From assembly GCF_056712565.1 (NCBI RefSeq), contig NZ_CM160072.1: DNA of 64,000 nucleotides. The stretch is one strand, 5' to 3'. The number at the start of each line of letters is the position of its first letter. The first letter of the stretch is position 1. Made by a program: the position numbers. Of this stretch, positions 12,001 to 18,000 are shown piece by piece.

Positions 12001-15000
12001 GACGTGGCTTTTTTCATTTATTACACCAGTAAATCTTAACCACCGATAAGGAGCAAAGTATGCGATTAGCAAGTCGTTTTGGTTATGCTGCAAACCAGAT
12101 ACGTCGTGACCGTCCACTGACACATGAAGAGCTGATGCACCATGTGCCGGGGATTTTCGGGGAAGAGAAACACACGTCCCGAAGCCAGAACTATACGTAC
12201 ATCCCCACCATCACCGTACTGGAAAATCTGCAGCGGGAAGGCTTTCAGCCGTTCTTCGCCTGCCAGACCCGTGTGCGCGACCAGAGCCGCCGGGAATATA
12301 CCAAACATATGCTGCGTCTGCGGCGGGCCGGACAGATAACCGGTCAGCATGTGCCTGAAATTATTCTGCTCAACTCCCATGACGGTTCATCCAGCTACCA
12401 GATGTTACCCGGATATTTTCGTGCCATTTGTACCAATGGCCTGGTCTGCGGTCAGTCGCTGGGAGAAGTCCGGGTGCCACACCGGGGAAACGTGGTGGAC
12501 AGGGTCATAGAAGGTGCTTACGAAGTGGTGGGCGTGTTTGACCTGATTGAGGAAAAGCGTGATGCCATGCAGTCGCTGGTCCTGCCGCCACCGGCACGCC
12601 AGGCGCTGGCACAGGCGGCGCTGACTTACCGTTATGGTGATGAACATCAGCCCGTCACCACTACCGACATTCTGACGCCACGACGCCGGGAGGATTACGG
12701 TAAGGACCTGTGGAGTGCTTATCAGACCATCCAGGAGAATATGCTGAAAGGCGGGATTTCCGGTCGCAGTGCCAGAGGAAAACGTATCCATACCCGGGCC
12801 ATTCACAGCATCGATACCGACATTAAGCTCAACCGGGCGTTGTGGGTGATGGCAGAAACGCTGCTGGAGAGCCTGCGCTGATACCGTTTCCCTGAAAGCG
12901 CAGTCCTGTTCACGGCTGTCCCTTCCCCCAGACATTCCACCATTCATTTACTTTTTATAAGGAATAATCTCATGACAACCTCTTCGCATAATTCCACCAC
13001 ACCTTCTGTTTCCGTGGCCGCTGCATCAGGGAATAACCAGTCTCAGTTGGTTGCCACTCCCGTCCCTGATGAACAGCGCATCAGCTTCTGGCCGCAGCAT
13101 TTTGGCCTCATTCCACAGTGGGTCACCCTGGAGCCCCGTGTCTTCGGCTGGATGGACCGTCTGTATGAAGACTACTGCGGTGGTATCTGGAATCTGTACA
13201 CCCTGAACAACGGTGGCGCATTTATGGCACCCGAACCGGATGACGATGATGACGAAACATGGGTACTGTTCAATGCCATGAACGGTAACCGCGCTGAAAT
13301 GAGCCCGGAAGCCGCCGGCATTGCTGCCTGTCTGATGACGTACAGTCATCACGCCTGCCGTACGGAGTGTTATGCCATGACGGTTCATTATTACCGTCTG
13401 CGGGATTACGCCCTGCAACATCCGGAATACGACGCCATTATGCGCATCATTGACTGAAAGGGGGCAGGAACAATGCAACAGATTTCCTTTCTGCCCGGAG
13501 AGATGACGCCCGGCGAGCGCAGTCTCATTCTGCGGGCCCTGAAAACCCTGGACCGTCATCTTCATGAACCCGGTGTGGCCTTCACCTCCACCCGTGCGGC
13601 ACGGGAATGGCTGATTCTGAACATGGCGGGACTGGAGCGTGAAGAATTCCGGGTGCTATATCTGAATAACCAGAATCAGCTGATTGCCGGTGAAACCCTC
13701 TTCACCGGCACCATCAACCGCACGGAAGTCCATCCCCGGGAAGTGATTAAATGCGCCCTGTATCACAATGCCGCAGCCGTGGTGCTGGCACACAATCACC
13801 CGTCCGGTGAAGTCACACCCAGTAAGGCAGACCGGCTTATCACCGAACGTCTGGTACAGGCACTGGGCCTGGTGGATATCCGGGTGCCGGACCATCTGAT
13901 AGTCGGTGGCAGCCAGGTTTTCTCCTTTGCGGAACACGGCCTGCTTTAACCCGTCACCGCCACAATCACATCACACCTGTTTTCACTTTTATCTTCTGTC
14001 TTCAAAGGTATCCTATTATGAAAATTATCACCCGTGGTGAAGCCATGCGTATTCACCAACAACATCCGACATCCCGTCTTTTTCCGTTCTGTACCGGTAA
14101 ATACCGCTGGCACGGCAGTGCTGAAGCGTATACCGGTCGTGAAGTGCAGGATATTCCCGGTGTGCTGGCCGTGTTTGCTGAACGCCGTAAGGACAGTTTT
14201 GGCCCGTATGTCCGACTGATGAGCGTCACCCTGAACTGAGTGGGAATTCTGATGAGCAGAATTATCGCCACCACCGGACCATTCTTAACCGATTTTCTGT
14301 AGGGATTTTATCGTGTCAGACACACTCCCCGGGACAACACTTCCCGACGACAATCACGACCGCCCCTGGTGGGGGCTACCCTGCACCGTGACGCCCTGTT
14401 TCGGCGCCCGTCTGGTGCAGGAGGGTAACCGGTTGCATTACCTTGCCGACCGTGCCGGTATCAGAGGCCTGTTCAGCGATGCAGATGCGTACCACCTGGA
14501 CCAGGCCTTTCCGTTGCTGATGAAACAACTGGAGCTCATGCTCACCAGTGGTGAACTCAGCCCCCGCTATCAGCATACCGTCACGCTGTATGCGAAAGGA
14601 CTGACCTGCGAAGCCGATACCCTGGGCTCCTGTGGTTACGTTTATCTGGCTGTTTATCCGACGCCCGAAATGAAAAATTAACTCTCCAGAATAGCCTTCT
14701 GCTACGGCCTGGTGTTTTCACCACGCAACTTTCCCATTTTTATATCTGCATATCAGGAAAATCTTCAGTATGAAAACATTACCTGTATTACCCGGGCAGG
14801 CGGCCAGTTCTCGCCCGTCTCCTGTTGAAATCTGGCAGATACTGCTGTCCCGACTGCTGGACCAGCACTACGGCCTCACACTGAATGACACACCGTTTGC
14901 CGATGAACGTGTGATTGAGCAGCATATTGAGGCAGGCATTTCACTGTGTGATGCGGTGAACTTTCTCGTGGAAAAATACGCGCTGGTGCGTACCGACCAG

Positions 15001-18000
15001 CCGGGATTCAGCGCCTGTACCCGCACTCAGTTAATAAACAGCATCGATATCCTCCGGGCTCGCAGGGCGACCGGCCTGATGACCCGCGACAATTACAGAA
15101 CGGTAAATAACATTACCCTGGGTAAGTATCCGGAGGCGAAATGATGACACTGGAAGCCGACAGCGTTAACGTACAGGCGCTGGATATGGGGCACATTGTC
15201 GTTGACATTGATGGTGTTAATATCACTGAACTGATTAATAAGGCCGCTGAAAACGGTTATTCACTCCGCGTGGTGGATGGCCGTGACTCTACCGAAACAC
15301 CGGCAACTTATGCCAGCCCTCACCAGTTGCTGTAAGACAATGCAGTGATACAGGGTATAGTGCCATTAACCACAGAAACAGCACTGTTGTCCTGTATTAA
15401 GCAGGCAAGAGAAGATGTCCTTACCCTGCGCCATCTGCAGCTTCTGCACCAGAACCGGTGAATCTCACTCAACAGGCTTCATTTCCCCTGACGCCAGCCT
15501 GAATACAGCTGGCGTTTTCATTTATAAACAGAAAGGAAAACCGATAATAATGGAATGGACGCCCCGACCATGAAGCAACGGTAGGATATTACTGATAAAC
15601 CTTCCAGTGGAGGTGCGTTATGGCCGTTTTAACGATTAGCATTGACCTGACAAAAAATGAATTCCAAATCCACGGTCTGGGTAGGAACAGAAAAATCTAA
15701 GCTCAGAAAACGGATTAAAGTAAGCGTCAACGGAGCACCGTATTGACGCTTATTTATTGGTGAGAACTACGTTCCATGGCAGGAGTTCGTCAACACGGTT
15801 GGAGGGCCATTCCGGCAGTATGCTCAGAATATGGCGCAGATACGCTTCCGGATCGATACCGTTCAGACGGCAGGTGCCTGCTTTTCCGGCAACAAGCAGG
15901 AATCTCAGCGCTGAAGCAGGAATTAGAGGTAAAAACGCCCTACCGGGCCATGAATCACCCGGTCATTGGAGTAGTAACCAAAGCAGATTTAGCCAGCATG
16001 GAACAAATATCTTTGGTGAAAAGTTGGTTACGGGAAGCTGGAGCGCACAACGTGTTAGTAACCAGTGCAGTTAATAACAATGGAGTTACAGAACTTTTTG
16101 CCTTGCTGCATACAGAAGAAGGCTGTTGTTAATTTCGATTGGTTCTCAGATGAGAATGATGACGGTGATACACAGATAAGAATCAATGAGCAATGAGGGT
16201 TGCCGGGCAACCCTCATTGAATAAAACGGGAATTACTTCGCTTCGCCGTTTTTCATTTCGCCCATAGCTTTCAGCTTTTTGGAGATATCGCGGCGTTCTT
16301 TGGAGAGCTCGGCATTTTTGATGATGTAATCGTCAACGCGATCTTCATAGTCACCTTTCATGCTGGCGATGATGCCCTGGATTGCTTCAACGCTCATCCC
16401 TGGCTTGATGTAATCGCTCAGGTTGTCCAGCAACAGGACGCGCTTCTGGTTGTCACGGATCTTTTTCTCAACGTCCTGAATTTCACGTTGCAGTTTGTTC
16501 TTACGACGGAACAGACGAACAAATTCCAGTACGTCCTGGAATGAAGGCTTGGTAGTTTCCATTTTTATACCCCTGATAATGTGAGAGTCGGATTCGTTTA
16601 AGCAACCGCTATTCGTTAGGGCCAACATTACTCATAGCTGCCGCAGATGACAATGCTTTTATCCCTTTTCACTATCATACCCTTTATCCTTGCTGAATCG
16701 AAGCAGCAGCAAGATGATTCTGAAGTTCAGGAATTATTTGCGCAAGGCCCGGCAAATCAGATTCGATAGCAACTCAAGCTGATGTGCCGTTTCCATGTTC
16801 AGCCACACATAACCATAGATTGGTGTTTCCACGACTTTCAGATCATGGTGGTTATCGAGCAACTGACGCAGCTCTTCCACAGCATCGTTCAATTTTTCCG
16901 TATTGGCAAAAACCGGCTGCGGATTACCTTCGTACAGCGCATGAACAAGGCTCAGCAGTATTTGCTGCATCATGTGCTGGGTATCACGAAGTTTTTGCGC
17001 GTTCAATAACACGAAATGGCTGGGGCGCGTGGCCCAGTATGCATTGATTTGCAACTCCAGCATACAAACCAGATTGCGATTAATGGTCTGGATACCTTCA
17101 TATATCGATTTGGGAATACGGGTTTCTTTGCTGGCGGGCGCAATCAGCCCACGCATTTTCACGGCATCGGTCAGCAGTTTTTGTAGATGGCTTTCCAGAC
17201 GTGGGCGTTCGAGTAAGTTCGGTGAGAATGCAGATTGATAGACCCGATTATACTCGGTCAGACTTTTCGCCAGTTGAATGCGCCAGTGGATGAACGCCCG
17301 TTGTGGCCAGATACCGGTAAACAACATTGCCAGTAAAGAGCCGAGGATCACATCGCCGCTTCGCCATAACGCCGTATCAATTTCACCTGTCGGGGAACCC
17401 ACAACAATTGCCAGCGTCACCCCAATCAATAATCCTTGATACGGTTTCTTGCCCAGCGCCAGCCAACCGCAAAGAAACATCGCCGCCGCGCACCAGACTA
17501 ACATCAGCGGTAACGAAATTAACTCCAGTTGCAGAGCGATAAGACCTAAAATCGAACCCAACACCGTACCGCCAATACGTTCGAAGGCACGAGGGACAAC
17601 GTTCCCCCAGAACGAGATTGGCCCCATAATCACCACCATGGTGACCAGCGGCCAGGTGCTTTCCGGGATAGTAAACAGGCGGATAATGAGAAAAGTGAGC
17701 AGGAATGCCAGCGCGACCCGAGTACCATGCACAATGCGGTAATGGCGGTATACCCGGATTTCAAACGGGCTTAATGACTTATCGGCACGCACGCAGAAAC
17801 TCCGTAATGAAGATTAAAAGCGCTCATAACACATCTGTCGGCCAGAAGGCGCGCCTCTGAGTTATCCGACGGACATACCGGGAACAGTGTAATTTCCCGG
17901 CAGGAGCGAAAAATTTGAAAGGCGCATCTTACTCTTTTCGCTTTCAAAAAAAGAGTGGTCTTCGCGTCAACACACCGCCCTGAGATGAATTAGTGATGTT

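Follow-up and report, generated by a model that had tools for sequence, protein, structure and literature searches.

The window, by which we mean the whole stretch of 64,000 nucleotides that was analysed, corresponds to the cobU-yeeX island of an extraintestinal Escherichia coli (B2, O2-type). This locus raised the question of whether its cbeA (yeeU) and cbtA (yeeV) genes form an intact type IV toxin-antitoxin pair and what such a pair would do for the island. We found that the region is very likely an intact orthologue of the cbeA-cbtA module of K-12 CP4-44, with inferred type IV action and probably weak expression, and is probably not a classical addiction module. The integrity, orthology, contact residues and context of the pair were shown directly by the sequence comparisons. 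All coordinates given below are on the plus strand.

Identity and integrity of the cbeA-cbtA pair

The preliminary description had placed an intact CbeA/CbtA (YeeU/YeeV) pair at 14313-15144, and the ORF coordinates, the Pfam matches and the K-12 identities agreed with this. The antitoxin gene cbeA (14313-14681), identified from the ORF list, Pfam and K-12 BLASTP, starts with GTG and encodes 122 residues. Its product matched the Pfam family CbeA_antitoxin (PF06154) with an E-value of 4.5e-54 over profile positions 1-100 of 101, and the profile score of 181.6 bits, compared with a cut-off of 27, places it in this family. The BLASTP comparison with K-12 MG1655 b2004 revealed 117 identical residues out of 122 in a gap-free alignment of proteins of equal length. 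Additionally, CbeA matched the solved structure 2H28 ('yeeU') over residues 1-122 (3.1e-81) and the YfjZ structures 2JN7 and 2EA9 (approximately 1e-41), and its exact sequence was present on at least 1000 contigs.

The toxin gene cbtA (14770-15144), supported by the same three sources (ORF list, Pfam and K-12 BLASTP), starts with ATG and encodes 124 residues. Its product matched CbtA_toxin (PF06755) over the entire profile (positions 1-112 of 112; E-value of 1.4e-57), and its score of 193 bits (cut-off of 25) likewise places it in the family. It was identical to K-12 MG1655 b2005 at 123 of 124 positions by BLASTP, gap-free and of equal length. Both R15 and F65 were present in the translation; these residues are the MreB contact and the FtsZ contact of CbtA, respectively, and each is required for that interaction (PMC5624674). 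The structure search returned no solved structure for CbtA (best E-value of 0.29). The NCBIfam models gave no match for CbeA, CbtA, YeeW or YeeT, a blank that reflects the content of the library and is no evidence against the identification. The match of the pair to CbeA/CbtA is far beyond chance.

As evident from the 1,851-bp DNA alignment with K-12 and CFT073, which was gap-free across the genes, cbeA and cbtA contain neither frameshifts nor truncations, and the claim that both proteins are full length relative to K-12 was thus borne out. The cbeA gene lies directly upstream of cbtA on the same strand, the position of an antitoxin gene, and an 88-bp spacer (14682-14769) separates the two. 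The K-12 spacer is also 88 bases long (PMC5371832), and the two spacers differ at two bases. The order of antitoxin, toxin and then yeeW with a 4-bp overlap, also previously proposed, could be read from the ORFs and the sequence; in particular, the ATG of yeeW overlaps the TGA of cbtA as ATGA. The preliminary description was therefore right that the pair is intact, but it had missed a private S86T substitution in CbtA and the truncation of yeeW to a stump.

The differences between CbeA and its K-12 counterpart were unevenly distributed, as all five substitutions (N83S, H86Y, K100E, S105G and D108G) fell within residues 83-108. At the DNA level, cbeA diverged from K-12 by 5.4%, compared with 0.5-0.9% for the neighbouring genes, a contrast suggestive of mosaicism or gene conversion.

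The pair was found in approximately 85% of complete E. coli genomes, with a median of 3 copies of the cbeA-cbtA segment per genome. The window contained no extra copy of the module, as tblastn with the five module proteins returned only those genes. The pair is an already described, ordinary E. coli feature. What has been gained is a confirmed annotation for a common gene pair that was biochemically characterised in K-12, which in itself matters little, although the word 'intact' can now be stated with evidence.

Proposed mode of action

We infer the toxicity, neutralisation and expression level of the pair from K-12. If CbtA behaves as its 99%-identical K-12 counterpart, it would bind FtsZ via F65 and MreB via R15, and an excess of the toxin would block both cell division and elongation, with the growth arrest and lemon-shaped cells expected of an over-expressed CbtA-family toxin. 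CbeA, which is 96% identical to the K-12 protein, would counter CbtA without binding it and would bind and bundle FtsZ and MreB filaments. Type IV systems are defined by indirect antitoxin action of this kind, without toxin binding.

That CbtA inhibits FtsZ and MreB, as previously stated for this locus, agrees with the literature on the K-12 protein (PMC5624674, PMC5371832). For the K-12 systems, the toxins were reported to interact with FtsZ and the antitoxins to neutralise the toxins, with no direct contact between toxin and antitoxin (PMC5371832); the same paper, citing Masuda 2012, describes the antitoxin as shielding its target by bundling FtsZ and MreB filaments. The pair in the window is probably weakly expressed, would not regulate itself and would not act as a classical addiction module. 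In K-12, neither partner is autoregulatory, the genes are expressed at a low level, and cells tolerate deletion of the antitoxin (PMC5371832). The clustering of the five CbeA substitutions counts against a full carry-over from K-12, although this CbeA variant is very common.

The cassette surrounding the pair

The pair forms the distal portion of a cassette of small, same-strand genes with the order DUF932, antirestriction, RadC, DUF987, CbeA, CbtA and the remnants of DUF5983 and DUF957. A strong, terminator-like hairpin, found by scanning and fold energy (11981-12010; -22.6 kcal/mol, z-score of -4.65) and followed by TTTTTTCATTTATT, lies 50 nt upstream of the cassette. The first gene encodes a DUF932 protein (12060-12881; Pfam E-value of 8.3e-49), and it is followed by an antirestriction-family gene (12972-13457; Pfam Antirestrict, 9.1e-36) and by yeeS, which encodes a RadC-like JAB domain (13473-13949; Pfam RadC, 4.4e-44) and whose product shares 145 of 148 residues with K-12 YeeS. 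The upstream neighbour of cbeA is yeeT (14018-14239; Pfam DUF987, 1.9e-39), which differs from K-12 at only two positions, both synonymous, so that the protein is identical.

Downstream of cbtA, yeeW (15141-15335; ORF list, Pfam and BLASTP) encodes 64 residues that matched only DUF5983_N in Pfam (1.7e-29) and were identical to K-12 MG1655 b2006 at 63 positions by BLASTP, gap-free and of equal length. The intact DUF5983 gene of the complete ETEC1701 cassette encodes 162 residues; judged by its sequence, yeeW is a truncated gene remnant with the N-terminal domain only, here and in K-12. The adjacent DUF957 gene (15369-15461; RefSeq annotation and alignment) is also a remnant. It has lost its start, the RefSeq entry for the identical sequence being marked 'incomplete; missing N-terminus', and alignment with the intact 65-residue gene of ETEC1701 revealed an internal deletion. 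A terminator-like hairpin with a U-rich tail (15490-15527), supported by fold energy and conservation, closes the cassette. Its energy was -16.1 kcal/mol (z-score of -4.63), none of 200 shuffles was as stable, and the transcription unit probably has its 3' end here. A sigma-70 consensus scan found no promoter upstream of cbeA or cbtA, including the spacer; the region gave four hits, two on the antisense strand, which is as many as shuffled sequences would be expected to give. Known RNA families had no match at E <= 1 between positions 11000 and 17000.

A cassette of this composition is characteristic of enterobacterial integrative islands, where it occupies the end distal to the integrase. In a 2025 preprint, modules of RadC/ArdB plus CbtA/CbeA are likewise described from the end of mobile elements that lies opposite the integrase (PMC12458937). 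We therefore considered whether the cassette as a whole, from DUF932 to DUF957, acts when a mobile element enters a new cell, where restriction would be countered and division briefly held back; such a role is unlikely but deserves some weight, and the copy in this immobilised island would then be a fossil. The idea itself has already been raised (PMC5512222, PMC12458937, PMC11288057). It gains from the conserved gene order (ETEC1701), the terminator-like hairpins at both bounds, the inclusion of an antirestriction-family domain and the location of such modules opposite the integrase (PMC12458937). Additionally, the F plasmid type IV secretion system translocates CbeA, YagB and YfjZ (PMC11288057), and 66 plasmids carried CbtA, including 34 that were predicted to be conjugative, compared with only 1 of 50,697 phage records. 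The decay of the downstream cassette genes in the window and the apparent immobility of the island speak against it. It is doubtful, on our estimate, that the pair is one working part of a 3.5-kb cassette bounded by terminator-like hairpins and used for entry, and not a stand-alone toxin-antitoxin system, with the copy here being a fossil that carries S86T. The entry role concerns biological function only and is compatible with the biochemistry proposed above. A bona fide phage origin was rejected, as CbtA occurred in only one of the phage records, itself a 3.2-kb fragment.

A private substitution in CbtA

Comparison with CFT073 and the closest complete genome identified a private SNP at position 15025 (TCT to ACT), which changes Ser86 of CbtA to Thr. 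A15025 was the sole difference from CFT073 across the 1,851 bp and one of only three differences (3/64,000 bases) from the closest genome in the window. None of 5,426 complete genomes contained an exact copy of a 61-mer spanning A15025, and a collection of 15 billion proteins lacked the exact T86 protein. Position 86 was Ser in 74 of 75 close homologues; among 82 distant cluster representatives, it was Ser in 57 and Thr in 9, which makes Thr the second commonest residue.

These observations bear on whether S86T weakens or inactivates CbtA, which would leave the pair intact in name only. We consider this improbable. The near invariance of Ser86 in close homologues, the absence of the T86 protein from both collections and its place among so few private SNPs argue for an attenuated toxin. 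Against it, the Ser to Thr change is conservative, Thr86 is found in distant family members, and residue 86 lies outside the known contact residues (PMC5624674). Moreover, the three private SNPs, at positions 15025, 22812 and 59277, are all missense and lie in the unrelated genes cbtA, plaP and wcaJ, a pattern consistent with recent mutation at random or with errors in sequencing. The AlphaFold2 model of CbtA had a mean pLDDT of 64.5 and values below 50 at residues 80-89, so that it is unusable for placing residue 86. As Thr is the second commonest residue here in distant homologues, S86T is probably tolerated, and we rejected it as a strong sign of toxin inactivation. It is unique but probably harmless, and it is relevant to anyone cloning this cbtA allele. 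The alteration of Ser86 in an allele seen nowhere else, together with the negative promoter scan, does count against the reading of the region as a K-12-like module.

Role of the pair in the island

The suggestion that the pair contributes to island maintenance was weakly supported. As an addiction module, it would act when the island is lost; stable CbtA would be left unopposed and would kill the segregant, thereby stabilising the island and its dynamin/patatin operon. The pair is located at the island edge, and integrative elements can be stabilised by toxin-antitoxin pairs that they carry, as with MosAT on SXT (as cited in PMC5371832). However, the annotation of the cobU-yeeX interval contained no integrase in either CFT073 or the closest genome, two near-identical genomes on which the check was made, the left part of the island lying outside the window; only IS transposases were present. 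Excision of the island is therefore unlikely, and CP4-44 is itself unable to excise (PMC5371832). The K-12 findings also stand against addiction, namely deletable antitoxin genes, no autoregulation and low transcript levels (PMC5371832). Within the CbeA family, the antitoxin of one copy neutralises the toxin of a paralogue (PMC5371832), and the segment has a median of 3 copies per genome, so that losing one copy should not kill the cell. Furthermore, type IV antitoxins exert their effect on the targets of the toxin and do not bind the toxin itself, and the literature examined held no evidence that CbeA is unstable. Addiction is thus quite improbable, and neither a part in maintaining the island nor a connection with the nearby candidate defence operon should be taken for granted for this pair.

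Abortive infection against phages, jointly with the neighbouring dynamin/patatin operon, is very improbable: phage defence is known for certain type IV systems, AbiE among them (PMC3985639), and defence cargo is frequent on such islands (PMC12458937), but PADLOC-DB v2 gave no match at E <= 0.01 for CbeA, CbtA or the cassette neighbours RadC, antirestriction and DUF932, phage defence by CbtA/CbeA was not reported in the titles or abstracts of the literature found, and between the pair and the dynamin operon lie six genes as well as the strong terminator-like hairpin.

Comparison with known systems

To place the K-12-like module among its relatives, we compared the region with K-12, B2 strains and ETEC1701. 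The closest characterised system is K-12 CbeA/CbtA (b2004/b2005, cryptic element CP4-44), which occupies the same chromosomal locus (cobU ... yeeX/tmaR-yeeA-sbmC); in the window, too, the pair is followed by yoeD/yoeF remnants, tmaR (yeeX), yeeA and sbmC. The two systems share gene order, lengths, the 88-bp spacer and the ATGA overlap with yeeW, and the tail of yeeW, DUF957, yoeD and yoeF is equally decayed in both. They differ in CbtA S86T and the five CbeA substitutions. Upstream, K-12 carries flu and yeeR as cargo, whereas the window contains DUF932, antirestriction and a dynamin/RdcB/patatin operon instead.

Among B2 strains with the cobU-yeeX island (CFT073, UTI89, 536, Nissle 1917 and Z0117EC0054), one base differed over 1,161-1,851 bp. 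RefSeq labels the matching sequence cbeA, cbtA and yeeW in CFT073, UTI89, 536, Nissle and others (99.9% identity). The CbeA (WP_001285586.1) and YeeW (WP_000988601.1) accessions are common to these strains and the window; the sole difference is A15025, as the reference CbtA (WP_000854814.1) has Ser86.

The K-12 paralogues YafW/YkfI (CP4-6) and YfjZ/YpjF (CP4-57) belong to the same two Pfam families, although the products of the three K-12 regions are only approximately 65-84% identical to each other (PMC5371832). In contrast to cbeA-cbtA, with its 88-bp spacer, these paralogues have a spacer of 20 bp (PMC5371832), and their elements are still able to excise.

The ETEC1701 cassette (NZ_CP122938.1, locus L005) also contains DUF932, antirestriction, RadC, DUF987, a YeeU-family antitoxin, a CbtA-family toxin, DUF5983 and DUF957, and the hairpin sequence at 15490-15527 is kept after its DUF957 gene as a terminator-like hairpin. 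In contrast to the window, it has an additional 214-residue gene before the antitoxin, a 280-residue DUF4942 gene that is missing from the window, and a full DUF5983 and an intact DUF957 gene where the window has stumps of both.

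Identity and integrity of the cbeA-cbtA pair

The six-frame ORF list placed the antitoxin gene cbeA (yeeU; GTG start, 122 aa) at 14313-14681 and the toxin gene cbtA (yeeV; ATG start, 124 aa) at 14770-15144, both on the plus strand, and together they span exactly the interval that the preliminary description had assigned to the pair. They were followed on the same strand by yeeW (15141-15335, 64 aa), whose ATG overlaps the cbtA stop in the motif ATGA, as was evident from both the ORF list and the sequence. The CbeA and CbtA ORFs matched the Pfam families CbeA_antitoxin (E 4.5e-54, profile positions 1-100 of 101) and CbtA_toxin (E 1.4e-57, 1-112 of 112), and yeeW matched DUF5983_N (E 1.7e-29). 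The solved YeeU structure 2H28 aligned with all 122 residues of CbeA (3.1e-81).

The pair had previously been called intact, and the alignment check for frameshifts and truncations revealed neither in cbeA or cbtA. BLASTP comparison with the K-12 MG1655 proteins (NC_000913.3) showed equal lengths without gaps and identities of 117/122 for CbeA, 123/124 for CbtA and 63/64 for YeeW, and the genes were also gap-free in a 1,851-bp three-way DNA alignment of the window, K-12 and CFT073. The feature is the already known, correctly identified and intact cbeA-cbtA pair, and at the sequence level its integrity, orthology and context are evident. Beyond this first reading, the analysis adds only a unique S86T allele, the remnant state of yeeW and DUF957, a suggested mosaic origin of cbeA and a reassessment of the weakly based maintenance idea.

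Genomic context and distribution

Over 1,161 bp spanning the pair, identity with B2 strains such as CFT073, UTI89, 536 and Nissle 1917 was 99.9%, and RefSeq labels the matching B2 sequence cbeA, cbtA, yeeW and a fragment of DUF957. Among the 5,426 complete genomes of E. coli, 4,587 contained 80% or more of this segment, with a median of three copies per genome. Judged from the flanks, the pair forms the right end of an island between cobU and yeeX (tmaR), the locus occupied in K-12 by CP4-44; beyond yeeX lie yeeA, sbmC, dacD, sbcB, the his operon and an O2/O50-type O-antigen cluster. Positions 15600-16132 contain a yoeD-like transposase remnant and the C-terminal part of an EutP/PduV gene (yoeF; Pfam 5.9e-13, covering 86-142 of the 143 profile positions), and these remnants mark the decayed right island boundary, as in CP4-44.

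Two further loci were observed. An unrelated type II pair, yefM-yoeB, lies about 10 kb downstream (approximately 24965-25470) between yeeZ and the his operon, as placed by the annotation that the closest genome gives for identical sequence. An iron-uptake-like cluster occupies window positions 160-5166, on the minus strand of the island; as annotated for CFT073 and for the closest genome, it comprises a TonB-dependent receptor, a substrate-binding protein, a FecCD permease and an ABC ATPase.

Proposed mechanism and sequence variation

The mechanism can be proposed from proteins with 96-99% identity. By analogy, CbtA would bind FtsZ and MreB independently and block both division and elongation, giving lemon-shaped cells, as reported in PMC5624674, where an R15C/F65S double mutant was non-toxic. 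CbeA would neutralise CbtA without binding it, through interaction with FtsZ and MreB; this indirect action is the meaning of "type IV" (PMC5371832, citing Masuda 2012). The toxicity, neutralisation and expression of the window allele are expected by the same analogy.

Compared with K-12, cbeA had diverged by 5.4% and yeeT, cbtA and yeeW by 0.5-0.9%, an approximately sixfold gap, and all five amino-acid changes in CbeA fell within residues 83-108, in the C-terminal third. This divergence and clustering suggest a mosaic origin of cbeA, probably via exchange with a paralogue. It is a common variant: at least 1,000 contigs carry this exact CbeA sequence, and the same lower bound applies to the exact YeeW.

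Across all 64 kb of the window, three bases (15025, 22812 and 59277) separate it from NZ_CP098206.1, the closest complete genome. Position 15025 opens codon 86 of cbtA, which reads ACT (Thr) in the window and TCT (Ser) in every relative. A 61-mer centred on this position had no exact match at 6,836 matching places in 4,245 genomes (5,426 complete E. coli genomes searched), and the exact 124-aa CbtA was absent from approximately 15 billion catalogued proteins; S86T is therefore real in the sequence as given and unique. The other two differences are missense as well: plaP carries S2L, at a base that is synonymous for the overlapping yoeI, and wcaJ carries A462V. Each of the three private changes alters a protein, a pattern resembling recent chance mutation or errors in sequencing. 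Ser86 was found in 74 of 75 full-length homologues (identity down to approximately 69%), in which neighbouring residues 83, 85 and 87 were variable, and S86T may lower CbtA toxicity. In a profile search, Thr was the second most common residue among representatives of 50%-identity clusters (9/82; Ser, 57/82), and R15 and F65, the residues through which, on genetic evidence, the toxin contacts MreB and FtsZ, respectively (PMC5624674), were unchanged. Residues 80-89 of the AlphaFold2 model were too uncertain to inform on position 86. From these comparisons, the substitution is probably tolerated. Separately, residue 15 was naturally Cys in 34 of 75 close homologues and 40 of 75 distant representatives; since R15C abolishes MreB binding in K-12 CbtA (PMC5624674), many natural members may target only FtsZ.

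Possible roles of the pair

A wider role put forward by others, more plausible than island maintenance, would be for the entire cassette to serve mobile elements entering a new cell. The F plasmid type IV secretion system translocates CbeA, YagB and YfjZ (PMC11288057), and RadC/ArdB and CbtA/CbeA modules lie at the mobile-element end opposite the integrase (PMC12458937). CbtA was carried by 66 plasmids, of which half were predicted to be conjugative, and was almost missing from phage genomes (1 of 50,697 records).

The preliminary description had instead suggested island maintenance, which was not borne out. For CFT073 and the closest genome, the annotation of the island lists IS transposases and remnants but no integrase. 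According to PMC5371832, CP4-44 is unable to excise, the K-12 antitoxin genes can be deleted with viability retained, the operon is regulated by neither partner, and three paralogous antitoxins cross-neutralise each other's toxins, which bears on genomes with several copies. For these reasons, post-segregational killing by the window's copy is unlikely, indeed very improbable as a means of maintenance, and the basis for that suggestion is weak.

A link to the operon at 6247-10600, which the preliminary description had mentioned as a candidate defence operon, is not indicated. This operon encodes a GTPase of the dynamin family (794 aa), a member of the YjcZ/RdcB family (301 aa) and a patatin-like phospholipase (356 aa), and between it and the pair lie six genes and a strong hairpin resembling a terminator. 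No PADLOC defence model matched CbeA or CbtA. The operon itself gave only weak PADLOC matches (LeoBC, 4e-6; phospholipase effector, 9.5e-5). Its first two genes resemble the K-12 yjdA/yjcZ (RdcA/RdcB, CrfC) pair.

Comparison with the ETEC1701 and K-12 cassettes

The pair forms the distal portion of a same-strand gene run with short gaps, preceded by a DUF932 gene (12060-12881), an antirestriction gene (12972-13457), the RadC-like yeeS (13473-13949) and the DUF987 gene yeeT (14018-14239), all on the plus strand. A very stable terminator-like hairpin with a T-rich tail (11981-12010; -22.6 kcal/mol, z -4.65) precedes the DUF932 start by only 50 nt, which leaves little space for a cassette promoter. 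A scan for sigma-70 consensus promoters gave no hit ahead of cbeA or cbtA, which fits the low transcript levels in K-12 (PMC5371832), and no Rfam family matched, including at this hairpin. A weaker but stable hairpin with a U-rich tail (15490-15527; -16.1 kcal/mol, z -4.63), which is also kept in ETEC1701, probably ends the transcription unit.

The ETEC1701 cassette (NZ_CP122938.1) is fuller and continues with genes for a 162-aa DUF5983, a 65-aa DUF957 and a DUF4942 protein. Alignment of window positions 15141-15461 with positions 3988-4685 of the ETEC1701 locus revealed that yeeW corresponds to only the N-terminal third of DUF5983, that DUF957 lacks its start and an internal piece, and that DUF4942 is missing; by this alignment, yeeW and the DUF957 fragment are stumps of the two longer genes. 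In K-12, the decayed yeeW/DUF957 tail is identical and carries the same deletions, which indicates that the decay is old.
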